From Kofleriaceae bacterium (GTDB lineage Bacteria; Myxococcota_A; Polyangia; Haliangiales; Haliangiaceae): a stretch of 64,000 nt of DNA. The notes beneath the pieces were generated by a model, which saw only the letters and a program-made list of their open reading frames with translations, was not told where the DNA came from and made no database searches. Location of the stretch: NCBI GenBank assembly GCA_039935615.1, contig JBDTJY010000032.1, positions 14,265 to 78,264 on the forward strand, written 5' to 3'. Positions 7,795 to 63,307 of this stretch are shown here, in pieces. A program made the position numbers and the translations under genes. Within the stretch, counting starts at the first letter, position 1, and each line of letters opens with the position of its first letter.

Positions 7795-8496
7795 TCAGTC
7801 GAGCAGCGACTTCGCGTGCGCCTCAGCCGCCGACGGATCGCCGATCTTCGTAGCCAGGGTGGCGAGCGGGTGTGCGACGTCGGGCCGATCGACGGCACCG
7901 TAGCGACGCGTCAAGTAGATCGCGCGTAGCGCGTCGTAGGCGCGATCGAGATCGTCGTTGACGATCAAGTGCTGGTACTCGTTGTAATGACGGAGCTCGT
8001 CCTTCGCCTTGTCGATCCGGCGCTGGATCACCTCGGACGAATCCGTCGCACGGGACCGCAGCCGCGCCTCGAGCGTGGTCAGGTCCGGCGGCAGGACGAA
8101 GATCTTGAGAGAATCTTGGGGCCACATCTCTCCGAGATGCCGGCCGCCCTGCCAGTCGACATCGAAGATCACGTCGCGCCCCGCGGCGAGCGCGGTGTCG
8201 ATCGGCGCCTGCGCCGTGCCGTAGCGGTTGCTAAACACGAACGCGTGCTCGGCAAATTCGTGATCGCGGACCATCGTCTCGAACTGGTCCGCGGTCACGA
8301 ACCAGTAGTCGCGACCGTTGATCTCGCCGGGACGCTGCGGCCGTGTGGTGTAGGACACCGAAAACTCCAGGCGAGGTCCGAACTCGTCGATCAGCCGGCG
8401 CGTGAGCGTGGTCTTGCCGGCCCCCGAGGGCGACGACACGATGACCAGAACTCCACGGTCACTCACGAACCCATAAGTAACATGGCGCTGCGGCAC
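7795..8496 (-). CDS. gmk: Guanylate kinase
   Basis: P-loop VLVIVSSPSGAGKTT and the typical Gmk core. GTG at 8496. An internal GTG at 8466 (MSDRGVLVIV...) is an equally plausible start. Confidence 0.9.
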   Translation of the reverse strand: MPQRHVTYGFVSDRGVLVIVSSPSGAGKTTLTRRLIDEFGPRLEFSVSYTTRPQRPGEINGRDYWFVTADQFETMVRDHEFAEHAFVFSNRYGTAQAPIDTALAAGRDVIFDVDWQGGRHLGEMWPQDSLKIFVLPPDLTTLEARLRSRATDSSEVIQRRIDKAKDELRHYNEYQHLIVNDDLDRAYDALRAIYLTRRYGAVDRPDVAHPLATLATKIGDPSAAEAHAKSLLD

Positions 8497-9406: not shown

Positions 9407-10534
9407 ATGAATAACACGTACAGTTTGGGCGTGCGGCTGTTGGTGCTTCTCGTGATCGCCGCGTGCGGTGGTGAAGCCGCACCGGTGCATCCGATCAAGT
9501 TCCTGCACACGTTCAACCCGCGCGAGACCGAGCTGTTCAACTCGACGATCGCCGAGCGCGGCCTCCGCGTCGACGCGTCGCTCGTGCCGTTCGCGCGCGG
9601 CCACCAGGTGATCACCGAGCTGTTGCGCGCCGGCAAGGACTGCCCGGACCTGATCCGGATCGATGCGACGTGGCTGCCCGGCCTGGTCGCGGCGAAGTTG
9701 CTGCAACCACCGCCGGCCGAGCTCCAGGCCGCGGCGTGGTCGGCGATCGCGAAGGAGATGACGATCGCCGAGGGCGCGGCGTGGGCGGTACCGCAATCGA
9801 TCGACGGGCTCGTCGTCGTGCGGCTCGCGAGCACGCCGGCGCCGGCGGGACCGAGCGTGGAGGAGCTGGCGCGGGCGGCACGCAGCTCCGGCCTCGCGCA
9901 TCCGCTCGGCGTGCGCGTCGACGGCTATTGGTTCGTGCCGTGGTTGCGCACGTTCGGCGTCGAGCTCGCGCCCGCCGAGATCGAGAATGATGGTGCGGTC
10001 CACGCGCTGCGCGAGTTTGCGGCGCTGTTCGACAGTCTCGCCGCGGCGCCGCCGAGCGCCGGCAGCGAAGCGCCCGACGAGCTGCGGCGGTGGAACGCGA
10101 AGGAGATCGCGTATTGGGTCACCGGTCCGTGGCAGCTCGCGGATCTGCGCGACCGCGATCAGATCGAGGTCAGCGCGCTCGCGCACGCACCGCGCGGCGG
10201 CCAGTTGCTGGTCGTGCCGACCTGCGCGCAGCAGCCGGCGGAGGGCTGGCGGCTCGCGAAGGAGCTGACGTCCGAACAGGTGTCGCTGATCTTCAGCGAC
10301 GCATTCGCGACGATCCCGACGCTCGACGCGGCGCAGGCGCACGCGACGACCCTGGTCCAGCGCACGCTCGCGGCGCTCGCGTCGGCCGAGCACTTGCCGC
10401 GCACGCAGGTCACGCCGCTGTTGTTCGACGATCTCAATCCGGCGGTCGCCGCGGTCGTCAACGGCGATGCGACGCCGGAAGAGGCGATCGCCGGTGTGCG
10501 GCGCGGCTGGCATCGCCTGGAAGGCTCGAAGTGA
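9407..10534 (+). CDS. Periplasmic solute-binding lipoprotein (ABC family-1 sugar-binding-like), no cognate permease nearby
   Basis: 375 aa. Signal plus lipobox LLVLLVIAACGG. Typical SBP N-terminus (IKFLHTFNPRE..., DLIRIDATW). Its stop overlaps the kinase start (GTGA). Confidence 0.75.
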   Translation: MNNTYSLGVRLLVLLVIAACGGEAAPVHPIKFLHTFNPRETELFNSTIAERGLRVDASLVPFARGHQVITELLRAGKDCPDLIRIDATWLPGLVAAKLLQPPPAELQAAAWSAIAKEMTIAEGAAWAVPQSIDGLVVVRLASTPAPAGPSVEELARAARSSGLAHPLGVRVDGYWFVPWLRTFGVELAPAEIENDGAVHALREFAALFDSLAAAPPSAGSEAPDELRRWNAKEIAYWVTGPWQLADLRDRDQIEVSALAHAPRGGQLLVVPTCAQQPAEGWRLAKELTSEQVSLIFSDAFATIPTLDAAQAHATTLVQRTLAALASAEHLPRTQVTPLLFDDLNPAVAAVVNGDATPEEAIAGVRRGWHRLEGSK

Positions 10535-32870: not shown

Positions 32871-34229
32871 GTGGCGGGTGTGAAGCGTGTCGATGCGTCG
32901 CGCGTGCTGATCGTCGACGACGAGAAGAACATCCGCACCACGCTGACGATGTGCCTCGAGAGCATGGGCTGCACGGTCACCGGCGCGAGCACGACCGAAG
33001 CCGCACTCGCCGCGGCGGAGCGCACCGCGTTCGACCTCGCGTTCGTCGATCTGCGCCTCGGCGATGAAGACGGGATGGCGCTGCTACCGCGGTTGCTCGC
33101 CGCGCGCCCGGGGCTCGCCGCGATCGTCGTCACCGCGTACGCGACGATCGATACTGCCGTGCAGGCGATCAAGCTCGGCGCGGTCGACTACCTGCCGAAG
33201 CCGTTCACCCCGGCGCAGATCCGCTTGGTCGTCGAGCAGGTGCTCGCTCGCCGGGCGACCGAGCGCAAGGTCGCCGACCTCGAGGCGCAGCTCGCGGACG
33301 AGCTCCCCGGCATCGACCTGTCGTCGCGCGCGCCGAAGATGATCGCGGCGTTCGAGCTCGCCGGGCGCGCGGCCGCGAGCGACGCGCCGATCCTGTTGCG
33401 CGGCGAGAACGGCACCGGCAAGAGCGTACTCGCCCGCTACGTCCACGCTCGCAGCAAGCGCGCGGGTCAGAGCTACGTCACGGTCAACTGCCCGACGCTG
33501 TCCGAGGACCTGCTCGCGAGCGAGCTGTTCGGTCACGCGATCGGTGCGTTCACCGGCGCGGTACGCGATCAGTCGGGCCGCGTCGAGTCGGCCGAAGGAG
33601 GCACGCTGCTGCTCGACGAGATCGGCGAGATCACACCAGCGCTGCAGGCGAAGCTGCTGCGGTTCGTCCAGGACAAAGAGTTCGAGCGTGTCGGCGAGGC
33701 CCGCACGCGCCACGCCGACGTCCGCGTGATCGCGGCGACGAATCGCGACCTCGATGCCGATGTCAAAGCGGGGCGGTTCCGCGAGGACCTGCTGTTCCGG
33801 CTCAACGTGATCGAGATCCACGTGCCGCCGCTGCGCGAGCGCGGCGAGGACATCCTCGAGATCGCGCGCAAGTTCCTCGCGTTCTTCGCACGCGCCGCGA
33901 ATCGCCCGACCCCGACGCTCGCCCCGGATGCCGAACACGCGCTCGCGGCGTACGCGTGGCCCGGCAACGTCCGCGAGCTGCGCAACGCGATGGAGCGCGC
34001 GATCATCCTGTTTCCCGGCAACGTCGTCGGTATGGCGGCGCTGCCCGAGCGGATCGCGCCCCACCCCACGACGTCGCCACGGCTCGGCGGCGACTTCACG
34101 CTCGACCAGATCGAGCGCGAGCACATCGAGCGCGTGATCGCTCGCACCGCGACGCTCGACGATGCCGCGAGCGTGCTCGGCATCGATTCGTCGACGCTGT
34201 ATCGCAAGCGCAAGCGCTACGACGGCTGA
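32871..34229 (+). CDS. NtrC-family sigma54-dependent response regulator
   Basis: [14 protein letters not shown], Walker [16 protein letters not shown]-terminal HTH. Start is GTG 32871 or 32880. Its 3' end overlaps the 3' end of the convergent kinase by 13 nt. Confidence 0.9.
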
Positions 34230-36046
34230 GCCACGGTCTTGACCGTGAACCAGATCGTGGTGCCCGGTCCCGGGCTCTCCACCACGCCGATGTCACCGCC
34301 GTGCGCGCGCACGTTCTCGCGCGCGATGAACAGGCCGAGCCCCGCGCCACCGGCGGGCGCGCCCGGCACCCGCACGTACTTGTCGAAGATCGTCGTGCGG
34401 AACTCCGCAGGAATGCCCGGGCCCTCGTCTTGGACTTCGAACCGAACGTAGCCCGCTTGCGCCAGCGCGCGCACCGTCACCGTGCCGTTCGCCGGTGTGT
34501 AGTGCAGCGCGTTACCGAGGAGGTTCGCGAACACCAGGGCGATCCGATCGTGTTCGACCTCGACCGGCGTCATGTCGGGCAGCACCTCCGAGCGCAGCGT
34601 CACCTGGCGCTGCGCCGCGACCGAGCGCTGCGCAGCGATCGCCTCGTCGACGAGGGCTTCCGGATCCTGCGGCGCGGTCCGCATCTCGATCCGGTTCGCC
34701 TCGATCCTCGACAGGTCCAACAGCTCGTCGACGATCGATTGCAGGCGGTCGCACTCTTCGCGCGCCGCGAACACCAGGTCGGCCTGCTTCGCGGTCAACG
34801 GGCCGACGGTCTCCTCGGCGAGCAGGTGGACCGCCATCCGCAGCGACGTCAACGGGGTGCGGAACTCGTGCGCGACGGTCGCGACCAGGTCGTTGCGGAG
34901 CTCCTCGAAGCGATGCAGGCGCGTCACGTCTTGAAACACGATCGTCGCGCCGACCACATCGCCTTCGTCCGCGTAGAGCGGCGCCGCGCGCGGCAGGAAC
35001 AACCGATCGCCTTCGCTGGTCGGGACGCGCACCGCCTCGTCGAGCCCTTTCGGCACGTACGGCCCGTGACCGGCTGCGACGTGCACGCGCAGCCGCTCGA
35101 TCACGCTGCGGATCGCCGGCTCCGCGCTCGCGATGCCACCGGTCTCGGCGCGGGTCTTCAACACGGTCTCGGCCGCCTGGTTCGCGTGGCGCAGCGATCC
35201 GTCGAGCGCGACCACCACGACCGGATCCGGCAGGCTGTCGATCGTCGCCTGCGCCGCGAGCTGAGCTTCGAGCAGCTCGCCGAGCGAGCTCGCGCGATAC
35301 TTCTGGAGCCGCTCGGCCATCGTGTTGAGCTCGCGCGCGACCTCGCCGATCTCGTCGCGACTGTCGACGCGCGCGCGGACGACGAGGTCGCCTTCGCCGA
35401 GGCGCCGCGCGGTCTGGCCGAGGACCGCGAGCGGTCGCAGCACCCGGGTCGTGATGATGCTCGACGCCGCGAGGCCGAGGATCAACCCGGCGAGCGACAC
35501 CAAGACCAGCAGCGTGTTCGAGCGGTTCGCGAGCGCCTGCGCGCGATCGCTCTTCGCGATCATCGCGTCCTGGTTCATCGTCAAGATCCCGTCCGCGGTG
35601 GTCTTGACCGCGAGGAAGGCACCGAGCATCGAGTCGAAGTAGCGCTGCCCGAGCGCGAGGCCGGCCGGATCGCGCCGGACGTCCGCGATCGCCGCCGTGT
35701 ACGCGGTCCAGGCCACGCGCAGCTTCGCCGTCGCGTCGTGCTCGCCGCGCTCCGTGATGTTCGCCTCCTGCGCGGAGAGCTCCGCCTCGAAGCGCGGGAT
35801 GTTCGCGTTGATCTGATCGAGCCCCATCGTGACCTTGCCGAGGGTCACGAACGTGATGCCACTATCGATCCGCTCGGCCGCCTCCTTCATCCGCTCGGCC
35901 GCGAGCACGCTGCGATAGTTGTCCTCGAGGATGGTCTGCGACTCGCGACCGAGGTCGCGCGCGACCAGGCTGCCGACGACGATCGTCACGCCGAGTGCGA
36001 TCACCAGCGGCAACTGCGCGAGCATCAGCTTGGTGCGCATCCTCAT
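34217..36046 (-). CDS. Sensor histidine kinase (TM, four-helix-bundle-like sensor, TM, HAMP, PAS, HisKA, HATPase); last gene of the kdp string
   Basis: 609 aa from ATG 36046 (MRMRTKLMLAQLPLVIALGV...), with an ATGA overlap onto the upstream stop. H-box ATVAHEFRTPLTSL, then NLLGNALHYT, DEGPGIP, GLGLFIAREN. Confidence 0.9.
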   Translation of the reverse strand: MRMRTKLMLAQLPLVIALGVTIVVGSLVARDLGRESQTILEDNYRSVLAAERMKEAAERIDSGITFVTLGKVTMGLDQINANIPRFEAELSAQEANITERGEHDATAKLRVAWTAYTAAIADVRRDPAGLALGQRYFDSMLGAFLAVKTTADGILTMNQDAMIAKSDRAQALANRSNTLLVLVSLAGLILGLAASSIITTRVLRPLAVLGQTARRLGEGDLVVRARVDSRDEIGEVARELNTMAERLQKYRASSLGELLEAQLAAQATIDSLPDPVVVVALDGSLRHANQAAETVLKTRAETGGIASAEPAIRSVIERLRVHVAAGHGPYVPKGLDEAVRVPTSEGDRLFLPRAAPLYADEGDVVGATIVFQDVTRLHRFEELRNDLVATVAHEFRTPLTSLRMAVHLLAEETVGPLTAKQADLVFAAREECDRLQSIVDELLDLSRIEANRIEMRTAPQDPEALVDEAIAAQRSVAAQRQVTLRSEVLPDMTPVEVEHDRIALVFANLLGNALHYTPANGTVTVRALAQAGYVRFEVQDEGPGIPAEFRTTIFDKYVRVPGAPAGGAGLGLFIARENVRAHGGDIGVVESPGPGTTIWFTVKTVAQPS

Positions 36047-37191
36047 GCGTGCGACTCCTCGGTCACCGCGACGATATGGACGTCGAGGTCGGTGGCCTCG
36101 CGCAGCAGGCGCAGCGGGGCCGAGCGGCCCATCAACTGACGCCACCACGGCTGATGCGAGCGCCCGATCAAGATGTGGCCGACATCGTGCGAGCGGGCAA
36201 AGTCGATCAGTGCCGGCACCGGATCCTTCGCACGCAACCGCACGACCTCGGCGCCGAGCTCGCGCGCGAGCTCGATGTTGCCGAGCAGGTGGCGCTGCGC
36301 TTCCGAATCGATCCGCTCGGGCGCCTCGCGCGGTGTCTCGACGTAGACCACGAACCAGTCCCCCGACAACCGACCCGCCATCCGCGAGCCCTTGCGCAGC
36401 AGCATCTCGGCATGCGGCGGATACGACGACATGCACACCATCACGCGCGCATGCACGGCCCGTGGCTCGCCCGCCGCCGTGCGCGCCTTCGATTCACTCT
36501 GGCGTTCGATCGATTCGGCGACCTCGCGCAGCGCGAGCTCGCGCAGCGTGGCGAGATTCGCGTCCTTGAAGAAGTGATCCATCGCCCACGCCACCTTGTC
36601 GGCCGCGTAGATCTTGCCGGACTTGAGGCGCTCGAGCAGATCCTCGACGGCGAGGTCGAGGTTGACGACCTGGACGGCCTCCTTGAGGAAGCGATCCGGC
36701 ACGGTCTCGTGGATCGCGACGCCGGTGACCTTCATCACCACATCGTTGAGCGACTCGAGGTGCTGGATGTTGAGCGCACCGATCACGTTGATCCCAGCCG
36801 CGAGTAGCTCGATCACGTCCTGGTAACGCTTCTTGTTCTTGCTACCGGGCGCGTTGGTGTGAGGAATCTCGTCGATGACACAGATCGCCGGCTTGCGCCG
36901 CAGGATCGCATCGACGTCCATCTCCTCGATCTCGACGCCGCGATACTCGACCTTGCGGCGCCCCACGACCTCGAGGCCGGCGACCAGCGCTTCGGTCTCG
37001 GCTCGACCGTGGGTCTCGACAAAGCCGATCACGACATCGACGCCGCGCTTCGCGAGCGCGTGTGCCTCCTCGAGCATGCGATAGGTCTTGCCGACTCCGG
37101 CGGCAAACCCGATGTAGAGCTTGAGCCCGCCGCGGCGAGTGCGCTGGACCAACTCGAGGAAGTCCTCGGCGCGCGGGCGGGTGGCCGTCAC
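36043..37191 (-). CDS. kdpD: Stand-alone KdpD N-terminal sensor module (KdpD domain + Usp domain), no TM or kinase part
   Basis: 382 aa from GTG 37191 (GTGA overlap with the kdpC stop). LKLYIGFAAGVGKTYRMLEEAHALAKRGVDVVIGFVETHGRAET..., HTNAPGSKNKKRYQDV, then Usp-like RVMVCMSS...DFARSHDVGHILIGRS. Confidence 0.9.
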   Translation of the reverse strand: MTATRPRAEDFLELVQRTRRGGLKLYIGFAAGVGKTYRMLEEAHALAKRGVDVVIGFVETHGRAETEALVAGLEVVGRRKVEYRGVEIEEMDVDAILRRKPAICVIDEIPHTNAPGSKNKKRYQDVIELLAAGINVIGALNIQHLESLNDVVMKVTGVAIHETVPDRFLKEAVQVVNLDLAVEDLLERLKSGKIYAADKVAWAMDHFFKDANLATLRELALREVAESIERQSESKARTAAGEPRAVHARVMVCMSSYPPHAEMLLRKGSRMAGRLSGDWFVVYVETPREAPERIDSEAQRHLLGNIELARELGAEVVRLRAKDPVPALIDFARSHDVGHILIGRSHQPWWRQLMGRSAPLRLLREATDLDVHIVAVTEESHA

Positions 37192-37850
37192 TTTGCCAGG
37201 GTAGCTCCGCCCTCGCTCGCCAGGTGAGCTGGCCGCCCGAACTTGCGGTCGAGCGCGAGGTTGACCGCGAGCACGTTGACGCGCGGCTCGCCGAGCAAGC
37301 CGAGCTCGCGGCCGTCGGTGTTGGCGTCGATCACGGCCTGGACGCGCGCGACCTCGACGCCGCGCGCCTTCGCGATCCGCGCGGCCTGGAACCTCGCGTT
37401 GTCGGGGCTGACGTCGGGATCGAGGCCGCTCGCCGAGCGCGTCACCGCGTCGACCGGCACCCACTCGCTCGCGGTCAGGCCGTTGGTCTCGCGATAGTCG
37501 TGGGCGAGCTGGGTCACGCCGATGAACGACTCGTCGACCTCCTTGGTCGCGGGGTCATCGACCGCGCCATCGCGCAGCTTCTTCGAGGTCGGCCCGAGGT
37601 TGGTGCCACCCGAGCTCGCCGCGTCGTAGCCACTCGCCGAGGGCCGCGGCCACACGTACTCGGGTGCGGTGAAGCCCTGGCCGAGCAGCTCGGAGCCGAC
37701 CTCGTGCCCCTTGTCGTCGACGACGATCGAGCCGTTCGCACGATGCGGGAACAGCACCTGGGCGGCGCCGGTGACGACGAGTGGATAGACGAGCCCGGTG
37801 AGGACCAAGGTGACGAGCGTGGCGCGCAGCGCGGTGACGAAGGTCTCCAT
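37188..37850 (-). CDS. kdpC: K+-transporting ATPase subunit C
   Basis: 220 aa. [28 protein letters not shown]..., GGTNLGPTSKKL. ATG shares one base with the kdpB stop. Confidence 0.93.
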   Translation of the reverse strand: METFVTALRATLVTLVLTGLVYPLVVTGAAQVLFPHRANGSIVVDDKGHEVGSELLGQGFTAPEYVWPRPSASGYDAASSGGTNLGPTSKKLRDGAVDDPATKEVDESFIGVTQLAHDYRETNGLTASEWVPVDAVTRSASGLDPDVSPDNARFQAARIAKARGVEVARVQAVIDANTDGRELGLLGEPRVNVLAVNLALDRKFGRPAHLASEGGATLAK

Positions 37851-39880
37851 TACACGGCTCCGATCGCCTGGAGGACCAGGTCGATGAGCTTGATCCCCAC
37901 GAACGGCGCGACGACGCCACCGAAGCCGTAGATCACGAGCGAGCGGCGGAGGATCGCGGCGGCGCCGAGCGGCCGGTACTTCACGCCCTTCAGCGCGAGC
38001 GGGATCAAGATGATGATGATGATCGCGTTGAAGATCACGGCGGACAGCACCGCCGACAGCGGCGACGCGAGGTGCATGACGTTGAGCGGCGCGATCTGCG
38101 GATACACGCCCATGAACATCGCCGGCAGGATCGCGAAGTACTTCGCGACGTCGTTCGCGATCGAGAACGTGGTGAGCGACCCGCGTGTCATCAACAATTG
38201 CTTGCCGACCTCGACGACCTCGAGCAGCTTCGTCGGATCGGAGTCGAGGTCGACCATGTTGCCGGCCTCTTTCGCGGCCTGTGTGCCGGTGTTCATCGCG
38301 ACGCCGACATCGGCTTGCGCGAGCGCCGGCGCATCGTTCGTGCCGTCGCCGGTCATCGCGACGAGCTTGCCCTTGGCCTGCTCGTCTCGGATCAAGTTCA
38401 TCTTGGTCTCGGGCGTCGCCTCCGCGAGGAAGTCGTCGACCCCAGCCTCGGCCGCGATCGCCTTCGCGGTACGCGGGTTATCGCCGGTCACCATCACCGT
38501 GCGAATGCCCATCGCGCGGAACCGCGAGAACCGCTCGCGGATGCCCTGCTTGACGATGTCCTTCAGGTGGATCACGCCGAGCACGCGCTTGTCGTCGGAC
38601 ACGGCGAGTGGCGTGCCGCCGGTGTCGCCGATCTTGTCGGCGGCGTCTTTGACGTCGGCCGGCAGGTTACCGACGTACTTGCCGATCGCATCGACGGCGC
38701 CCTTGCGGACTTCGCGATCGGCTATATCCACACCGCTCATCCGGGTCTGCGCGGTGAACTTGATGAATGTCGCGTTCGCGATCTCGCGCGGCGGGACGCC
38801 GTAGGTGTCCTTGACGATCGCGACGATCGATCGCCCCTCGGGGGTCTCATCCGCGAGGCTCGACAACATCGCCGCCTCCGCGAGGTCCTCGATCCGCACA
38901 CCGGCCGCAGGCAGCAGTTCGCTCGCCATCCGGTTGCCGAGCGTGATCGTGCCAGTCTTGTCGAGCAGCAGCACGTCGACATCGCCCGCGGCTTCGACCG
39001 CGCGACCGCTCATCGCGATCACGTTCTTGCGCATCAAGCGATCCATCCCGGCGATGCCGATCGCCGAGAGCAACCCGCCGATCGTCGTCGGGATCAGGCA
39101 CACCAACAGCGCGACCATCACGGTCCCCGACAGGTGGACACCCGAGTAGATGCCGAGCGGCACCAGCGTCACGGTCGCGATCAGGAACACGATCGTGAGC
39201 CCGACCAGCAAGATGTGCAGCGCGATCTCGTTCGGCGTCTTCTGCCGCGACGCACCCTCGACCAGCGCGATCATCTTGTCGAGGAACGACTCGCCGGGGT
39301 CCGCCGCGATCCGGACGACGATCCGATCCGAGAGCACCTTCGTCCCACCCGTCACCGACGAGCGATCGCCGCCCGACTCGCGGATCACGGGCGCGGACTC
39401 GCCGGTGATCGCCGACTCGTCGACCGACGCGATCCCCTCGACGATCTCGCCGTCGCCGGGGATCATCTGATTCGCTTCGACGACGACGAGGTCACCCTTG
39501 CGGAGCAGCGACGCCGGCGTGAGCTCGGCCAGCTCCTTACCGTCGACGAGCTTGCGCGCGCTGGTCTCCTGCCGCATCTTGCGCAGCGAATCGGCCTGGG
39601 CCTTGCCGCGGCCTTCGGCGACCGCCTCGGCGAAGTTCGCGAACAGCACGGTGAACCACAGCCACAGTGTGATCGCGATCGTGAACCACAGCGGCGAGCT
39701 CGGCGTGCCGATCAGATCGCGCACCACGAACACCGTGGTCAGCACCGAGCCGATCATCACGACGAACATCACCGGGTTCTTGTAGAGCACCCGCGGATCG
39801 AGCTTGACGAAGCTGTCGCGGACCGCCGCGCGCAGCAGCGACGGATCGAACATCGAGATCTTCTTACTCTGGCTCGCCAT
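37850..39880 (-). CDS. kdpB: K+-transporting P-type ATPase subunit B
   Basis: 676 aa from ATG 39880 ([30 protein letters not shown]). [27 protein letters not shown]. Confidence 0.96.
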
Positions 39881-41595
39881 CACAGCACCTCGCCGCGCAG
39901 GGTCTGGAAGTGTTCGACCACCGGACCCAGCGACAGCGCCGGAAAGAACGTCAGCGCGCCGACGACCACGATGACCGCGACGAGCAGCGCCGTGAACAAC
40001 CAGCCATTCGTCGGGAACGTGCCGAGCCCGGGCGCGACGGTCTTCTTGTTGAGCATCACGCCGGCGAGGCCGAGCGCGGGCAAGATCATGAAGAACCGGC
40101 CCGCGAGCATCGCGAAGCCGAGACAGATGTTCCACCAGTCGGTGTTCGCGTCGAGACCACCGAACGCCGAGCCGTTGTTGCCGGCCGCGCTCGTGAACGC
40201 GTACAGCATCTCCGACAGGCCGTGCGAGCCGGCGTTGCCGACCGAAGAGCTGCCATAGCTCGCGACCGCCGCCCACCCGGTGAAGCAGAGGATGATCAGC
40301 GGGAACACGAGCACGTAGAGCATCGCGAGCTTCATCTCGCGGCCCTCGATCTTCTTGCCGAGATACTCCGGTGTGCGCCCGACCATCAAGCCCGCGATGA
40401 ACACCGTCAGCACGACGAAGATCAGCATCCCGTAGAGGCCGGCGCCGACGCCGCCGAGCACGACCTCGCCGAGCTGGATGTTGACCATCGGCACGAGCCC
40501 ACCGAGCGGCGTGAAGCTGTCGTGCCACGCGTTGACCGCACCGCACGAGGCGTCGGTGGTCACCGTCGCGAACAGCGCGGAGTTCGCGACGCCGAATCGG
40601 AGCTCCTTGCCCTCCAGGTTGCCGCCCGCGACCGCGAGCCCGTGCATCGCCGGGTTCGGATGCGACTCGGCCCAGTACGTCACCGCCACGCCGGCGAAGA
40701 ACAACACCGACATCGCGGCGAGCAGGACCCAGCCTTGCCGCTGGTCCTTCGCCATCCGGCCGTACGTGTACGTGAGCCCCGCGGGGATCGCGAAGATCAG
40801 CACGAGCTCGAGGAAGTTCGTGACCGCGCTCGGGTTCTCGAACGGATGGGCACTGTTCGCATTGAAGAAGCCGCCGCCGTTCGTGCCGAGCTCCTTGATC
40901 GCTTCTTGCGACGCGACCGGGCCCATCGCGATCAGTTGCTTGCCGCCCTCGAGCGTCGTGATCGAGTGGTAGCCGGCGAGGTTCTGGATCACGCCCTGCG
41001 AGACCAGGACCAGCGCGACGACGACGCAGATCGGCAGCAGCACGTAGACGATGCCGCGGATCAGGTCGACGTAGAAGTTGCCGACGCCCCGGCTGCCGTC
41101 CGGGCCGGGGCGCCGCGTGAGGCCGCGGGCGACGACGAGCGCGACACCGAGACCGGCGGCGGCCGACGTGAAGTTGTGCCACGCCAACCCGGCCATCTGG
41201 GTGAAGTAGCTCATCGTCGTCTCGGGGACGTACGACTGCCAGTTGGTGTTCGTCGTGAAGCTCGCGGCGGCGTTGAACGACAGCGCGGCCGGCACGTTGC
41301 CGAGGTGCTGCGGGTTGAGCGGCAGCGACCCCTGCGTGCGCTGGATCAGATACGTCACGATCAGGCCGAGCGCGCTGAACACGAGCATCGCGATCGCGTA
41401 CTGCAACCACGATTGCTCGCGCGACGCGCGCAGCCCGCACGACCGCAACAGGCCGCGCTCGAGCCGGCCGAGCGTGCGCGGTAGTGGCCGCGTGTCGCCC
41501 TCGAACACGCGAAACATGTACGCGCCGAGCGGCTTCGTGAGCGCGACGATCACGAGGAAGAAGCAGATGATCTGCAGCCAGCCGTTGAACGTCAT
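39880..41595 (-). CDS. kdpA: K+-transporting ATPase subunit A
   Basis: 571 aa polytopic membrane protein. [27 protein letters not shown]... Typical KdpA length and start. Confidence 0.95.
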
Positions 41596-41684
41596 CAGAA
41601 CTGCTCCGGCCCGAGCAAGGCGTAGACGAGATAGACGGCGACGAGCACCGCGACGACGAGCCCGAGCAGATATTCGGTGGACAT
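41595..41684 (-). CDS. kdpF: K+-transporting ATPase subunit F (29 aa)
   Basis: [33 protein letters not shown] lies 6 nt upstream of the ATG. The stop shares one base with the kdpA ATG. Confidence 0.85.
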
Positions 41685-41770
41685 CACACGCTCCGGTCCA
41701 GCGAGCGCGCGTAGACCACCGCGACGGCGAAGAACGCAGCGGTCACGATCAAGAACACGACATCGGCCAT
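41684..41770 (-). CDS. Unannotated 28-codon hydrophobic ORF, KdpF-like single TM helix, coupled to kdpF
   Basis: My translation: MADVVFLIVTAAFFAVAVVYARSLDRSV. 26 of 28 sense codons end in G/C. Its TGA shares one base with the kdpF ATG (TGATG). GGGGTGA lies just upstream of its ATG. Confidence 0.45.
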   Translation of the reverse strand: MADVVFLIVTAAFFAVAVVYARSLDRSV

Positions 41771-41784
41771 TTTCACCCCACTCG

Positions 41785-41800
41785 TGCAGCACGAGTGCCA
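41785..41800 (-). promoter_or_regulatory. Candidate sigma54 (-24/-12) promoter TGGCAC-TCGTG-CTGCA for the kdp string
   Basis: The minus strand reads TGGCACTCGTGCTGCA. The GG and GC dinucleotides have the exact consensus spacing (consensus TGGCAC-N5-TTGCW). The motif is embedded in a 9-1-9 palindrome at 41779..41797. Predicted TSS is about 41772..41776. Confidence 0.55.
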
Positions 41801-41912
41801 CCACTCAGATCGCGGGAACTACTCGGGATGTGCCCCCTGTTCGGATCGCGGAGGCGGGCATTTCGCATGACCACGAACGAGGCATCGTGCAAAGCGCAGC
41901 CTGGGCGTTTCT

Positions 41913-41965
41913 GATCAAGAGGAGATCAAGGCCTTTACGGATTCTTGATCGTGGAGTCGATCTTG
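41913..41965. promoter_or_regulatory. Heptamer repeats GATCAAG (x2, 11-bp register), inverted CTTGATC and GATCTTG in the kdp/kimA-like divergent region
   Basis: gatcaag at 41913..41919 and 41924..41930. cttgatc at 41944..41950. gatcttg at 41959..41965. These lie about 115-165 bp upstream of the sigma54 motif and 15-67 bp upstream of the transporter ATG. Confidence 0.4.
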
Positions 41966-41979
41966 CTGATGCCGGTTGG

Positions 41980-43962
41980 ATGCGCGCCCTCGCCCATCGG
42001 CTGTTCGGTCGAGCTCGTGACCTTCGCGATCCGAGCATCTTTCATCAGATGAGCCTCGTCGCGTTCCTCGCGTGGGTCGGGCTCGGCGCGGATGGCTTGT
42101 CATCGTCGTCGTACGGTCCCGAAGAAGCGTTCAAGGCGCTCGGTCACTGGACGCCCGCCGGCACGTTCGTCCCCGATCACGCGTACCTCGCGGTGTTCCT
42201 CGCCGGCGCGATCGCGGCGACGGTCTTCATCATCTCGTGGAGCTATCGCCGGATCATCGAAGAGTTCCCGCACGGCGGTGGCGGCTACATCGTCGCGACC
42301 AAGCACCTCGGGCCGTACGTCGGCGCGCTGTCGGGCTCGGCGCTGCTCGTCGACTACGTGCTGACGATCGCGATCTCGCTTGCCTCGGGCGCGGACGCGA
42401 TCTTCAACTTCCTGCCCGATCGCTGGCTACCGTACAAGCTCGCGTGCGTGCTCGCCGTGCTCGCACTCCTCACGCTGATGAACCTACGCGGCGTGAAGGA
42501 ATCGGTGACCATCCTGATGCCGATCTTCATCATCTTCCTCGTCACCCATGCGTTCTTGATCTTTGGCGTGATCGGCACCCACGTCGGGCAGGTCGGCGAG
42601 ATCGCGCACACGGTCTCCGACGGCGCGCACTCGCACCTCAGCGCGGTCGGCTTCATCGGCGTCGCGCTCGTGTTCATGCGCGCGTTCTCCCTCGGCGGCG
42701 GCACGTTCACCGGCATCGAGGCGGTCTCGAATGGCATCGGCATCATGCGCGAGCCGCGGGTCCGCACCGCGAAGCGCACGATGCTGTTGATGGCGACGTC
42801 GCTCGCGATCACGGCGAGCGGCATCTTGCTCGCGTATCTCCTGCTCCACGTCGTGCCCGAGCACGGCAAGACGATGAACGGCCTGCTCGCCGAGAAGTTC
42901 GTCGGCGACGGCGCGCTCGGCACGATCTTCGTGATCGTGACGATGGTGTCCGAAGGCGCGCTGCTGTTCGTCGCCGCGCAGGCCGGCTTCCTCGACGGAC
43001 CGCGCGTGATGGCAAACATGGCGCTCGACAAGTGGCTGCCGAGCCGGATGGCCGCGCTGTCCGAGCAGCTCACGATGCACAACGGCGTCTATCTGATGGC
43101 GGTCGCCGCGGCGCTCGTCCTGGTCTACACGCATGGCTCGGTCGACGCGCTCGTCGTGATGTACAGCATCAACGTGTTCATCACGTTCACGCTATCGAAC
43201 GTCGCGATGATCCGTCACGCCGCCCACGCACGTGAGGGCCGCTGGCGCCGCGCGATCTTCGTCCACAGCCTCGCCGCGACGGTGTGCGCGATGATCCTGG
43301 TCGTCACGCTGGTCGAGAAGTTCACCGAGGGCGGCTGGATCACGAGCGTGATCACCGCGACGCTGGTCGTCGTGTGCATCGCGATCCGCGCGCATTATCG
43401 CCGGGTCGGCACGAAGGTCGCCGAGCTCTCGAAGCAGCTCGACCTCGACATCCCGCCGCCGGCCGAGCTGTACACGACCGCCGAGCTCGATCCGACGAAG
43501 TCGACCGCGGTCGTCCTCGCCGGCGGCTACAGCGGTCTCGGCCTGCACACGCTGATGCAGATTCCGCGCGTGTTCCCGAATCAGTTCGAGCAGGTCGTGT
43601 TCCTCGCGGTCGGCGTGATCGATGCCGGCGTGTTCAAGGGCAAGGACGAGGTCGATCGGATGCGAGCGAAGATCGACGCTGACCTCGACAAGTACGTCAC
43701 GTTCGCGCGCACGCACATGGGCTGGGCCGCCGAGAACGACTCCGCGATCGGCACCGAAGCGGTCAGCGAGCTCGATAGCCTGTGCCGGCAGCTCGCGCTG
43801 CGGTTCCCGCGATCCGTGTTCTTCGCAGGCAAGCTCGTGTTCCAGCACGACAGTTGGTACCAGCGCATCCTGCACAACGAGACCGCGATCGCGGTCGAGC
43901 GTCGCCTGCACTTCGCGGGGTTACCGATGATCGTGCTGCCGATCCGGATCATGGGATCTTGA
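41980..43962 (+). CDS. APC-superfamily transporter with cytoplasmic C-terminal domain, KimA (YdaO)-like K+/H+ symporter candidate
   Basis: 660 aa from ATG 41980 (MRALAHRLFGRARDL...). Motifs I associate with KimA: SSSYGPEEA, FPHGGGGYIVATKHLG, SALLVDYVLTIAISLASGADAI, FTGIEAVSNGIGIMREP, C-terminal WYQRILHNETA. The track ORF 41677.. is over-extended. Confidence 0.8.
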   Translation: MRALAHRLFGRARDLRDPSIFHQMSLVAFLAWVGLGADGLSSSSYGPEEAFKALGHWTPAGTFVPDHAYLAVFLAGAIAATVFIISWSYRRIIEEFPHGGGGYIVATKHLGPYVGALSGSALLVDYVLTIAISLASGADAIFNFLPDRWLPYKLACVLAVLALLTLMNLRGVKESVTILMPIFIIFLVTHAFLIFGVIGTHVGQVGEIAHTVSDGAHSHLSAVGFIGVALVFMRAFSLGGGTFTGIEAVSNGIGIMREPRVRTAKRTMLLMATSLAITASGILLAYLLLHVVPEHGKTMNGLLAEKFVGDGALGTIFVIVTMVSEGALLFVAAQAGFLDGPRVMANMALDKWLPSRMAALSEQLTMHNGVYLMAVAAALVLVYTHGSVDALVVMYSINVFITFTLSNVAMIRHAAHAREGRWRRAIFVHSLAATVCAMILVVTLVEKFTEGGWITSVITATLVVVCIAIRAHYRRVGTKVAELSKQLDLDIPPPAELYTTAELDPTKSTAVVLAGGYSGLGLHTLMQIPRVFPNQFEQVVFLAVGVIDAGVFKGKDEVDRMRAKIDADLDKYVTFARTHMGWAAENDSAIGTEAVSELDSLCRQLALRFPRSVFFAGKLVFQHDSWYQRILHNETAIAVERRLHFAGLPMIVLPIRIMGS

Positions 43963-43997
43963 CGCCATCTTGATGTGACCGGAGCTATCCATGTGGT

Positions 43998-44204
43998 GTG
44001 GACCGCGACGACCGAACCATCTACCTCGCACTCGTGTTGATCGGCATGCTGCCGCTGATCGGTGCCATCGTGATCGGCGGTCCTGTCGGCTCGGGCGTGA
44101 CCGTGTGCTTCTTGATGGTCGTATTCGGGATCGCGGGGGTAGTCCATGACACCTTCCACCACCGGCCACCGCAGGCGCGCGTCTCTCGCGATCGCGACCG
44201 CTAG
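43998..44204 (+). CDS. Possible 68-aa two-TM membrane protein
   Basis: Track ORF with a GTG start. Hydrophobic segments IYLALVLIGMLPLIGAIVIGG and VTVCFLMVVFGIAGVV. It overlaps the first 59 nt of the next gene if that gene starts at 44146. Codon bias does not discriminate. Confidence 0.3.
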   Translation: MDRDDRTIYLALVLIGMLPLIGAIVIGGPVGSGVTVCFLMVVFGIAGVVHDTFHHRPPQARVSRDRDR

Positions 44205-45399
44205 GCGCTACGGCGTCGCCGTCCTCGGCGTGGTCGCGGCGACCGTGGCCGCGAGCGCGTTGGGCGATCACATTACCGTGGCCGATCAGGCGATGCTGTT
44301 CCTGCCGGCGATCCTCCTCGCCGCGCTCGGTGGGCGCGGCCCGAGCCTCGCCGCGGCTGCGCTGTCGGTCGCCGCGTTCGACTTCTTCTTCGTCGAGCCG
44401 CGCCTCACGTTCGCGGTCTCGGACCTCCACTCGATCGTCACGTTCGTCGTGATGTTCGTGGTCGGTAGCGCGATCGGCACGTTGGTCGCGCGGCTGCGTG
44501 CCGCCGAGGAGGCCAGCCGCGAGCGCGAGCGTCGCACCGCCGCGTTGCTCGCGTTCACGCGCGATGCCGCCGCGGCGACCGACGAGGCCGGGGTCGTCGC
44601 GGCGGTCGAGGCACATCGAGTCGCCTCCGATCAGCCGGCGTTCGTCGACGCGGTCGCCCGTCAGGCGGAGGTCGCGATCGGCCGTTTGCAGCTCGCCACG
44701 GTCGCGCGCGATGCCGCGTTGCGAGCCAAGGCCGAGGAGCTGCGCAGCGCGCTGCTGTCGTCGGTGTCACACGATCTGCGGACGCCGCTCGCGGCGATCA
44801 CCGGCATGGCGACGTCGCTGCGCGATCGCGTGGGCGCGAACCTGGAGCTCGACACGATCATCGAGGAGGCGCAGCGCCTGAGCCGACTGCTGACGAACCT
44901 GCTCGCGATCACGAAGGTCGAGAGCGGCGCCGCACCCCGCCGCGACTGGGTACCGCTCGAAGAGATCGTCGGCTCGGCGCTCGCGCGGTTGGACCACGAG
45001 CTCGCCGATCGCACGATCACCGTCGACGTGCCGGCGCTCGCCCACATCGATCCGATCCTCGTCGAGCAGTTGCTGCTCAACCTGCTCGAGAACGCGGCGA
45101 AGCACACCCCGCCCGGGACGCCGATCGACGTGCGCGCCTCGCGCGGTGTCGATCGCGCGGTCCTCGAGGTCTCCGATCGCGGCCCGGGGATTCCCGCCGA
45201 CGCGCGCGCGCACGTGTTCGACAAGTTCTTCCGCGGCAACGCGTCGGTCCCCGGCGCCGGCCTCGGCCTCGCGGTGTGTCGCGGCATCGCGGCCGCCCAC
45301 CTGGGTGGCATCGAGGCGCTGCCGCGCGATGGTGGCGGCACGCGGTTCGTCGCCTGGTTTCCCGACGCCGAGCCGGTGCCGGCGGAGGTGCTGCCATGA
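44146..45399 (+). CDS. kdpD: Histidine kinase corresponding to the C-terminal half of KdpD (DUF4118 TM domain, linker, HisKA, HATPase)
   Basis: 417 aa. TM block LGVVAATVAASALGDHITVADQAMLFLPAILLAALGG...FDFFFVEP. H-box SSVSHDLRTPLAAI, then LLENAAKHTP, DRGPGIP, GAGLGLAVCRGI. It has no KdpD-N or Usp part. The start could be slightly downstream. Confidence 0.85.
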   Translation: MTPSTTGHRRRASLAIATARRYGVAVLGVVAATVAASALGDHITVADQAMLFLPAILLAALGGRGPSLAAAALSVAAFDFFFVEPRLTFAVSDLHSIVTFVVMFVVGSAIGTLVARLRAAEEASRERERRTAALLAFTRDAAAATDEAGVVAAVEAHRVASDQPAFVDAVARQAEVAIGRLQLATVARDAALRAKAEELRSALLSSVSHDLRTPLAAITGMATSLRDRVGANLELDTIIEEAQRLSRLLTNLLAITKVESGAAPRRDWVPLEEIVGSALARLDHELADRTITVDVPALAHIDPILVEQLLLNLLENAAKHTPPGTPIDVRASRGVDRAVLEVSDRGPGIPADARAHVFDKFFRGNASVPGAGLGLAVCRGIAAAHLGGIEALPRDGGGTRFVAWFPDAEPVPAEVLP

Positions 45400-46082
45400 C
45401 GCGGACGATCCTCGTCGTCGAAGATGAAGCGCCGATGCGGCGGTTCCTCGCGTCGGCGTTGACCAGCCACGGGTTTCGCGTCGAGGAGGCCGCCACCCTC
45501 GCGCACGCCGAGCGGATCGCGACCGAGACTCGCCCCGCGGCGATCCTGCTCGACCTCGGCCTCCCCGATGGCGATGGTCTCGACCTGTTGCGCCGGCTGC
45601 GCGAGTGGTCGAACGCACCGGTGATCGTGCTGTCGGCGCGCGATCGCGAGGACGACAAGGTGCTCGCGCTCGACGCCGGCGCCGACGACTACCTGACCAA
45701 GCCGTTCGGCACGAGCGAGTTGCTGGCGCGGATCCGCGTCGCGCTCCGCCACGTCCACGGCCAGACCGTGCCCGACGATCCGATGATCGTGGTCGGGCCG
45801 ATCGCGATCGATCAGGCGCGCCACGAGGTCAGCGTCGACGGGGCGAGCATTCACCTGACGCCGATCGAGTTCCGCCTCGTGGTCCTGCTCGCGCGTCACG
45901 CCGGCAAGGTGCTCACGCATCGCCAACTGTTGAACGACGTGTGGGGCCCGCGCAACGCGCATCAGAATCACTACCTGCGCGTTCACATGGCGGCGTTGCG
46001 CCGCAAGATCGAGGTCGATCCGGCGCGGCCGCGGTGGCTGACGACCGAAGCGGGCATCGGCTATCGCCTGAAGGACGAGTAG
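45396..46082 (+). CDS. kdpE: OmpR-family response regulator KdpE
   Basis: 228 aa from ATG 45396 (ATGA overlap). ILVVEDE, LLDLGLPDGDG, VIVLSARD, winged-helix LTPIEFRLVVLLARHAGKVLTHRQLL..VWG. Confidence 0.9.
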   Translation: MTRTILVVEDEAPMRRFLASALTSHGFRVEEAATLAHAERIATETRPAAILLDLGLPDGDGLDLLRRLREWSNAPVIVLSARDREDDKVLALDAGADDYLTKPFGTSELLARIRVALRHVHGQTVPDDPMIVVGPIAIDQARHEVSVDGASIHLTPIEFRLVVLLARHAGKVLTHRQLLNDVWGPRNAHQNHYLRVHMAALRRKIEVDPARPRWLTTEAGIGYRLKDE

Positions 46083-46471: not shown

Positions 46472-46643
46472 TGCGCGCACGCTACCCAATTCTCGCGCGC
46501 AGAGGTTCGCTCAAGATGCTGTGACGCAGATTGCGGAAATACCCTGCAAATCTCGACCGAGTGCGACGGCGAGCGCGCATTCGGTCAAGAGCGTTCAGCG
46601 CGTGGTTCGCGATGCGCAGCGGGCTCGTGGCATACGAGATGCG

Positions 46644-62926: not shown

Positions 62927-63064
62927 CCACGCTGGTTCACGATCGCGTTTCGCACCACGGATCGCGAAGACTGCTGAGGCGTAGGCGCACATCTTCGCCT
63001 CGCCTCGCACGCGAGCGGTCAGATCGATCACCTGGATCACGCCTGGTCGCGGGGTTGGCGCGGC

Positions 63065-63307
63065 ATGAAAGCTGCTGTGTTCGCGGGTATGGGCTCCTCG
63101 CTTTGGTTCTTGTTGCTCGCCGCGATCGTCGCGCTGGTGACCGGCTGTCCTCGGGTCGAGGCTCAACCCGCACAACAGCTCCCGGGCGACGCCGGCATTC
63201 ACATCGCGGACGCGCTCAAGCGCGCGCCGATCACGCGCGACGCCACGCCGCTACATCTGGACGGTGGAGCGATCCACGCGGACGGTGGACCGAGCTCGTC
63301 GCACTGA
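63065..63307 (+). CDS. Small putative lipoprotein (80 aa)
   Basis: ATG start. LWFLLLAAIVALVTGC signal plus lipobox. Third-position G/C is lower than in neighbouring genes. Confidence 0.45.
   Translation: MKAAVFAGMGSSLWFLLLAAIVALVTGCPRVEAQPAQQLPGDAGIHIADALKRAPITRDATPLHLDGGAIHADGGPSSSH

Follow-up and report, generated by a model that had tools for sequence, protein, structure and literature searches.

The 64,000-nucleotide stretch of Kofleriaceae bacterium DNA analyzed here (contig JBDTJY010000032.1, positions 14,265 to 78,264; hereafter the window, GC content 68%) carries on its minus strand, at 41785..41800, a -24/-12 element of the sequence TGGCAC-TCGTG-CTGCA. With an estimated probability of about 0.85, this element functions as the sigma-54 promoter for an operon comprising a small peptide gene, kdpFABC, a gene for a KdpD N-terminal sensor with a Usp domain (KdpD-N/Usp) and a gene for a PAS histidine kinase, and it operates through the mechanism proposed below. 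The GG doublet of the -24 region (41799-41798) and the GC doublet of the -12 region (41787-41786) are exactly 10 bp apart, and the element fits 10 of the 11 specified positions of the TGGCAC-N5-TTGCW consensus. A preliminary description of this DNA had reported the motif with its consensus GG/GC spacing and this number of matches, and all of these are reproduced on the minus strand (41800..41785). The significance of the promoter comes from its position and conservation, not from the consensus match itself.

Conservation of the promoter and its linked activator

A KdpA search yielded 80 genome loci (L001-L080). The first 21 (L001-L021, 66-82% KdpA identity) are designated Myxococcota-type: they derive from Kofleriaceae, Polyangia, Anaeromyxobacteraceae and other Myxococcota metagenome-assembled genomes (MAGs), and also take in a handful of MAGs whose label reads only (Delta)proteobacteria or Pseudomonadota and a single MAG from Thermodesulfobacteriota (L019). 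The remaining 59 loci (L022-L080, 57-63% identity), mostly from Acidobacteriota, are of the KdpD/KdpE type and served as controls. A metagenome set independent of the genome set (L081-L099) provided 15 loci with enough upstream sequence. Counts given for 22 loci refer to the window and the 21 Myxococcota-type loci.

When the 2.6 kb upstream of kdpA was scanned for GG-N10-GC sequences agreeing with the consensus at 9 or more of 11 positions, one element each was found in 17 of the 21 Myxococcota-type loci, always directly before the first gene of the operon; additional matches within coding sequence in L018 and L019 were set aside. Weaker, correctly spaced elements occupy the same place in the other four loci, and the true sites of L018 and L019 are likewise weaker (CGGCATGCGCGATGCA in L003, AGGCATGAATCATGCG in L008, TGGCCCAGTTCCTGCT in L018 and TGGCCTAACCTTTGCT in L019). 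With the weaker versions counted, a -24/-12 element precedes the first operon gene in 21/21 related loci. At a background match density of 6.8e-5 per position, the binomial probability of such a positional coincidence is ~1e-37, although the related loci share ancestry and are therefore not fully independent observations. None of the 59 KdpD/KdpE-type loci, which are without a linked activator, has the motif within 450 nt upstream of kdpA.

A leave-one-out matrix gives the same result: derived from the 21 orthologous sites with the window excluded, it ranks the segment 41782..41803 (-) first of ~128,000 window positions, with 17.4 bits compared to 14.8 for the next best. In the metagenome set, an element of at least 12 bits lies before the first operon open reading frame (ORF) in 12 of the 15 loci, and a weaker one in the other three. 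The preliminary description had tied its promoter to conservation upstream of kdp in relatives, and on this count it is borne out. Alignment of the window with the two syntenic loci nearest to it, its closest relative (L083, 84% KdpA identity) and L002 (alignment A1), reveals five conserved blocks, namely TTTGCACGA, TCATGCGAAA, TGGCAC, TGCA and the start-codon region, while the spacer between -24 and -12 varies.

The promoter co-occurs with a specific regulatory module. In tblastn searches with the window proteins, the activator (60-82% identity), the PAS kinase and KdpD-N/Usp all adjoin kdp in the Myxococcota-type loci, and the activator falls within this identity group even in the Thermodesulfobacteriota MAG. 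Unrelated enhancer-binding proteins in the same loci reach only 37-39% identity. The Acidobacteriota-type loci encode the classical KdpD/KdpE and no such activator. The earlier claim that the locus encodes an NtrC-type activator and a dedicated kinase is correct, as judged from Pfam domains and from the GAFTGA motif, which is intact in the translation of the regulator at 32880..34229. Its broader proposal, a sigma-54 promoter for kdp served by this locus-encoded pair, gains support from the presence of the element in every relative with the activator module and from its absence in the 59 controls.

The two upstream blocks of the alignment, TTTGCACGA and TCATGCGAAA, are inverted relative to each other, are kept in the window, L083 and L002, and constitute a candidate upstream activator sequence (UAS) centered ~105 nt upstream of the start codon, in agreement with the usual 80-150 bp UAS placement for sigma-54 promoters. 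In the 150 nt before the promoters, the 22 loci together contain the core TTGCA/TGCAA 33 times where 2.15 occurrences are expected, a 15-fold excess, and it is present in 19 of them.

Proposed mechanism

The element itself, its conservation, its co-occurrence with the activator module and the gene and domain content are direct observations. As for the signal, the phosphotransfer partners, DNA binding, the transcription start and leaderless translation, we infer the following sequence of events. KdpD-N/Usp, as a soluble sensor, and the PAS histidine kinase would act together as a split KdpD. Upon K+ limitation or osmotic stress, the kinase with KdpD-N/Usp would phosphorylate the NtrC-type regulator (32880..34229), which would then bind the TTGCA-type inverted sites at 41861..41893, ~100 bp upstream. 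ATP hydrolysis by the regulator would open the closed complex of the sigma-54 holoenzyme at 41785..41800. Transcription is predicted to begin at the ATG at 41770 or a few nucleotides before it, giving an mRNA that would be translated in a leaderless or near-leaderless manner, and the translation of the small peptide, kdpF and kdpA would be coupled via overlapping TGATG stop/start codons.

Promoter-to-start distance

From the C of the -12 GC (41786) to the A of the ATG (41770) the distance is just 16 nt. The sigma-54 holoenzyme bubble spans about -12 to +1 (PMC7057263), and the predicted start zone was set from this general geometry. Taking both values together, a transcript from the kdp promoter would therefore have a leader of roughly 0-6 nt. 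The preliminary description had placed the transcription start at 41772..41776, which is reasonable; that the implied leader would then be at most ~6 nt had gone unnoticed.

This spacing recurs among the relatives. The gap between TGCW and ATG is 12-15 nt in 15/22 loci, compared to a random expectation of 7.6%, and this gap class is independent of the nature of the first gene, be it the small peptide or a porin (13-15 nt in L001, L003, L005 and L006). Most short-gap loci are without GGAG-type Shine-Dalgarno sequences, whereas the metagenome loci with gaps of 26-42 nt (L089, L092, L094, L097 and L099) carry ribosome-binding sequences of the GGAG type. Other sigma-54-like sites in the same loci behave similarly: the 12-15 nt gap is found for 17/43 of those scoring at least 10 bits and for 11/20 of those scoring at least 12 bits (p about 5e-9), where chance again predicts 7.6%, with the proviso that these sites are partly orthologous to each other, so that the gap counts are not fully independent. 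Among them are sites ahead of homologues of the APC-family permease, ahead of a Ser/Thr kinase gene that three loci share and ahead of a lipoprotein gene of the window.

Collectively, the spacing indicates that the kdp mRNA is probably leaderless or near-leaderless. A wider reading is tentative, and we hold it at somewhat less than even odds: sigma-54 promoters of Myxococcota would systematically end 12-15 nt before the start codon, with leaderless mRNAs as the rule and kdp as one example. On this reading, promoter opening would gate expression almost wholly, as no 5' untranslated region would be left for post-transcriptional control. For myxobacteria, sigma-A-type promoters that yield leaderless transcripts have been proposed (PMC12754779), and the literature searched contained no account devoted to leaderless transcripts driven by sigma-54 in Myxococcota. 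The conserved abutment of promoter and start codon may be the sole new feature of the system.

Further sigma-54-like elements were observed outside the kdp operon. The lipoprotein gene mentioned above is preceded by CGGCATGAAAGCTGCT (63061-63076, plus strand, 12.8 bits), 12 nt before the ATG at 63089; its ORF begins with a lipoprotein signal peptide, MGSSLWFLLLAAIVALVTGC, and the promoter-start spacing is as at kdp. Another such sequence, TGGCATACGAGATGCG (46628-46643, plus strand, 14.4-14.5 bits), sits before a large ORF for a secreted protein or lipoprotein; it overlaps the likely GTG start of that ORF (46643, MRKHVWWLLFSVGC) and was not counted as a promoter. Among the relatives, elements of this kind lie before the APC permease homologues of L007 (4442-4457, minus strand, 20.9 bits), L011 (4882-4897, plus strand) and L012 (19329-19344, plus strand), and before a divergent KdpD-N/kinase operon in L009 (9590-9605, minus strand). 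Permease and sensor genes may thus belong to the same regulon in other Myxococcota.

Alternative readings

Several points weigh against the promoter assignment and the leader derived from it. Motifs with at most one mismatch to the consensus number 2 in the 64-kb window, where 0.75 are expected, and 2 or more are found in 21 of 100 shuffles; the shared ancestry of the related loci has been mentioned above. The transcription start, the dependence on rpoN and the binding of the activator are predictions. The 64-kb window contains no rpoN, and its presence in the genome is our assumption from knowledge of the phylum. Myxococcota are known to have the gene, and in M. xanthus it is essential (as cited in PMC12316311). 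The likeness to the system of Desulfovibrio (see below) is one of architecture and site core. Furthermore, a kinase resembling the C-terminal half of KdpD (KdpD-C-like) and a KdpE-like regulator, encoded at a distance of 2-4 kb beyond the promoter, could act on kdp too. Finally, a weak Shine-Dalgarno-like GGTGA stands just before the ATG in the window (2 nt away), L083 and L002; a ribosome site would be pointless on a leaderless mRNA, and the sequence hints at an additional, upstream start.

These last points are accommodated by a dual control, in which the sigma-54 promoter is real and an additional, upstream sigma-70-type promoter responds to the neighboring KdpE-like regulator. The resulting mRNA would have a leader, with the palindrome that overlaps the promoter (discussed below) as a 5' hairpin and GGTGA as the ribosome-binding site. 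We consider this arrangement unlikely, although not negligibly so. It is consistent with the location of the KdpD-C-like kinase and the KdpE-like regulator (44146..46082), which stay near kdp in Kofleriaceae loci, with the purine run shared by the three aligned sequences, with GATCAAG direct repeats at 41913-41934 and with the 8-bp RNA hairpin that the palindrome could form. Nevertheless, no sigma-70 consensus promoter or intrinsic terminator was detected in 41650..42050 on either strand, a consensus scan being insensitive at 68% GC. The direct repeats are not conserved in L002 or L083 and lie 46-67 nt from the start of the APC permease gene, which they fit better; GGTGA ends merely 2 nt from the ATG; and the hairpin is not conserved, its RNA fold being unremarkable (z = -1.1). 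The pair near the permease more probably serves the divergent APC permease operon rather than kdp. A riboswitch or other known RNA in the leader was dropped as a candidate, since Rfam gave no match at gathering thresholds over the whole window, nor at E up to 1 in 41550..42050.

The intergenic region also displays features that may concern the permease gene. The GATCAAG direct repeats, starting at 41913 and 41924 (plus strand) and 11 bp apart, are accompanied by an inverted copy, TTCTTGATC, at 41942-41950; all of these copies are 30-67 nt away from the start of the APC permease gene, on its upstream side. Another inverted copy, perfect over 12 nt, is found inside the small ORF (41744-41755). 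The repeats are candidate sites of an OmpR-family regulator. Inspection by eye of 41945-41982 (plus strand) gives TTGATC-N16-TGATGC, ending 7 nt before the permease ATG; the counterpart in L002 is TTGATG-N16-TAATGC, again 7 nt from the ATG. A sigma-70-type promoter may lie here, from which the APC permease mRNA would be leaderless; the consensus scan did not call the element.

Returning to the kdp promoter, the sigma-54 element overlaps a perfect 9-1-9 palindrome, CACTCGTGC-A-GCACGAGTG (41779..41797), which is present as the preliminary description had reported. Its left arm consists of the CAC of the -24 region and the variable spacer, and its right arm of the GCA of the -12 region and the next six bases (about -10 to -5). 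That description had offered, as another reading, an operator or an RNA hairpin. A functional palindrome would be either the operator of a dimeric repressor blocking access of the sigma-54 holoenzyme or a stem, in DNA or RNA, through which promoter opening is modulated. We regard this as quite improbable. The perfect 9-1-9 symmetry does exceed that of all 200 local shuffles; over the whole window, however, palindromes of this size (arms of 9 bp or longer, loops no longer than 4) occur at chance frequency, with 8 counted and 5 distinct compared to 9.1 +/- 3.6 in shuffles. In L083 the right arm is identical, and the spacer CCCGA is not complementary to it and breaks the symmetry; in L002 neither arm is kept and the promoter carries no repeat. 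Relatives above 90% identity, in which compensatory changes could be sought, are present in neither collection (best KdpA identities 82% and 84%).

Folding of the 34-nt promoter segments as DNA gives a more nuanced picture. A z below -2.5 is reached by 4/22 kdp promoters (the window, L004, L005 and L012), compared to 2.3% of random 34-mers; this excess of inverted repeats is modest (binomial p = 0.0015), and it is the other point in favor of a function. In L004, L005 and L012 the spacer or the -24 region pairs with bases just before the start codon. The other 18 of the 22 promoters show no significant repeat, the z values as a whole show no shift (Mann-Whitney p = 0.095), and the four repeats differ in arm sequence and in loop length (1, 8, 8 and 5 nt, respectively), which speaks against a shared protein operator. 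In addition, the upstream arm would not be transcribed from the kdp promoter. L083 and L002, the chance frequency in the window and the RNA z value all speak against a conserved operator or hairpin, and we conclude that the palindrome, with its left arm in the non-conserved spacer, is a lineage-specific by-product of the spacer sequence, neither required nor conserved.

Lastly, the motif could be a chance match, with kdp under KdpE-type control and transcribed solely by the sigma-70 holoenzyme, as in E. coli; we consider this very improbable. In its favor are the gene for a KdpE-like regulator in the neighborhood and a motif count in the window that does not exceed chance. Against it, the motif is position-conserved in every related locus, absent from the KdpDE-type loci, top of an independent matrix and co-conserved with the UAS and the activator module, and in most Myxococcota-type loci (L007-L021) no KdpE is encoded close to kdp.

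Gene content of the locus

The coordinates of the features are collected in Table 1. The genes from the small peptide to the PAS kinase are joined by overlapping start and stop codons throughout, and are thus considered one operon. The preliminary description had placed the motif directly before kdp; the operon context is right, and the 28-residue ORF before kdpF as well as the divergent APC permease on the other flank had been overlooked.

Table 1. Features of the kdp locus in the window, and inverted repeats over the kdp promoters of three relatives
Feature	Position	Strand	Basis or remark
Sigma-54 (-24/-12) promoter element	41785..41800	-	sequence, orthologue matrix, conserved position
Perfect 9-1-9 palindrome overlapping the promoter	41779..41797	none	sequence
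Candidate UAS, TTTGCACGA (41893-41885) and TCATGCGAAA (41870-41861), inverted	41861..41893	-	conserved in alignment A1
Predicted transcription start zone	41770..41776	-	11-16 nt past the C of the -12 GC; 0-6 nt before ATG 41770
28-aa hydrophobic peptide, MADVVFLIVTAAFFAVAVVYARSLDRSV	41684..41770	-	first ORF of the operon
kdpF (29 aa)	41595..41684	-	TIGR02115 and PF09604, both over curated cutoff
kdpA	39880..41595	-	ORF translation; 57-84% identity to KdpA in 160 loci
kdpB, P-type ATPase subunit	37850..39880	-	Pfam E1-E2_ATPase and Hydrolase
kdpC	37188..37850	-	Pfam KdpC
KdpD N-terminal sensor with Usp, without kinase domain	36043..37191	-	Pfam KdpD (2e-90), Usp
HAMP-PAS-HisKA-HATPase histidine kinase, last operon gene	34217..36046	-	Pfam; near kdp in Myxococcota-type loci
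NtrC-type enhancer-binding response regulator (REC, sigma-54 AAA+, HTH_8)	32880..34229	+	Pfam
L004, inverted repeat GCACGCGCG-N8-CGCGCGTGC	9756-9790		over kdp promoter
L005, inverted repeat CACACCC-N8-GGGTGTG	8334-8365		over kdp promoter
L012, inverted repeat CATGGC...CCGCTG-N5-CAGCGG GCCATG	9798-9830		over kdp promoter

The first ORF has its ATG just 14 nt past the promoter motif, and its stop codon overlaps the kdpF ATG (TGATG). The peptide is kept at 26-29 residues, with the pattern M-x-D-hydrophobic...FF...Y-x-R-x-x-D/E-R, in nearly all Myxococcota-type kdp loci and in L019, and it has no match in Pfam or NCBIfam. This unannotated small membrane peptide is likely an accessory gene product of the Kdp operon. 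In several relatives a beta-barrel porin gene is the first of the operon instead (L001, L003, L005, L006 and L018; probably also L081, L085 and L091), that of L005 matching the BBP2/OmpL-like family PF07642. There the sigma-54 promoter precedes the inserted porin gene, not the kdpF side, which suggests that K+ may enter across the outer membrane by a route under the same regulation as Kdp.

The start of KdpD-N/Usp overlaps the kdpC stop codon, and its best NCBIfam match is NF038185, the KdpD-like non-kinase potassium sensor (389.6 bits, under the curated cutoff of 550). The genes of the activator and of the PAS kinase converge. On the other flank of the intergenic region (41771..41979), a divergent module (41980-46082, plus strand) encodes a 660-residue APC-family permease, starting at 41980, a DUF4118-HisKA-HATPase kinase and an OmpR-type KdpE-like regulator. 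The permease has no NCBIfam match and is possibly a K+ transporter. The kinase is the counterpart of the C-terminal half of classical KdpD; since the N-terminal part is encoded in the operon and the C-terminal-like kinase beyond the permease gene, KdpD is split across both sides of the locus, and a single full-length KdpD paired with KdpE, the classical arrangement, is not found. Only in Kofleriaceae loci do the KdpD-C-like kinase and the KdpE-like regulator stay near kdp.

Comparison with known systems

The closest counterpart is known from Desulfovibrio vulgaris. DVU3334, a sigma-54-dependent response regulator, binds upstream of its own operon and regulates it, as mapped by DAP-chip (Rajeev et al. 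2011, PMC3333781); the operon contains kdpFABC, DVU3336 (K+ sensor, UspA) and DVU3335 (kinase domains), so that the kinase is split into two ORFs, and the site, CGTTACATTTTGTAACG, lies 149 nt before kdpF (PMC3333781). Kazakov et al. (2015) list DVU3334 as a GAFTGA regulator that targets DVU3339.1-DVU3337 and give potassium uptake as the function (PMC4641369). By its architecture and its site core, the locus in the window is a circuit of this DVU3334 type. As in DVU3334-DVU3339.1, kdpFABC is followed by a KdpD-N/Usp protein without a kinase domain, a PAS ("sensory box") kinase and an NtrC-family regulator with GAFTGA, and a palindromic activator site, a candidate in the window, lies 100-150 nt upstream of the first small ORF. 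The D. vulgaris site resembles the UAS of the window, with cores TTACA/TGTAA there and TTGCA/TGCAA here. Differences are also evident: in the window the activator gene is convergent and not co-transcribed, an extra gene for a 28-residue peptide (or, in relatives, a porin) precedes kdpF, the promoter abuts the start codon, and the locus is flanked by the KdpD-C-like kinase, the KdpE-like regulator and the APC permease.

The E. coli KdpD/KdpE system shares with the window the target kdpFABC, the presumed signal (K+ limitation or osmotic stress), the N-terminal KdpD sensor with Usp and a KdpE-like regulator nearby. In contrast to that sigma-70-dependent system with its OmpR-type regulator, KdpD in the window is split, the adjoining regulator is an AAA+ enhancer-binding protein and the promoter is of the -24/-12 type. 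The sensors of NF038185 likewise combine KdpD_N and Usp without a transmitter domain and are encoded in kdp operons; the window protein differs by its score below the cutoff, by the dedicated PAS kinase that follows it and by the sigma-54 output. With promoters of the NtrC/glnAp2 type the window element has in common the GG-N10-GC core, a UAS ~100 bp upstream and a response-regulator-type enhancer-binding protein with GAFTGA. The known classical examples have ordinary leaders with ribosome-binding sites, unlike the leader of only 0-6 nt predicted here.

The preliminary description had remarked that kdp is classically dependent on sigma-70 and KdpE. This is valid for E. coli, but sigma-54/NtrC-type control has been mapped experimentally in Desulfovibrio vulgaris (PMC3333781, PMC4641369), and the present case is therefore less unusual than first assumed. 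For myxobacteria, no description of such control of kdp was found in the literature searched: a study of the M. xanthus predation transcriptome states that nothing has been reported about that species' kdp genes and assumes KdpDE control (PMC5857379), and a 2025 survey of sigma-54 regulons leaves kdp unmentioned.

Conclusions

The assignment of 41785..41800 as a sigma-54 promoter corrects the default view of myxobacterial kdp as controlled by KdpDE and sigma-70. It extends the split-KdpD/NtrC-type circuit of Desulfovibrio to a second phylum, in which it seems to be the norm, and it provides a concrete, testable set of promoter, UAS and activator for K+ and osmotic regulation. The conserved promoter-start spacing suggests that enhancer-dependent promoters can feed leaderless translation. 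If this is general, the annotation of sigma-54 regulons and of start codons in these genomes would change.

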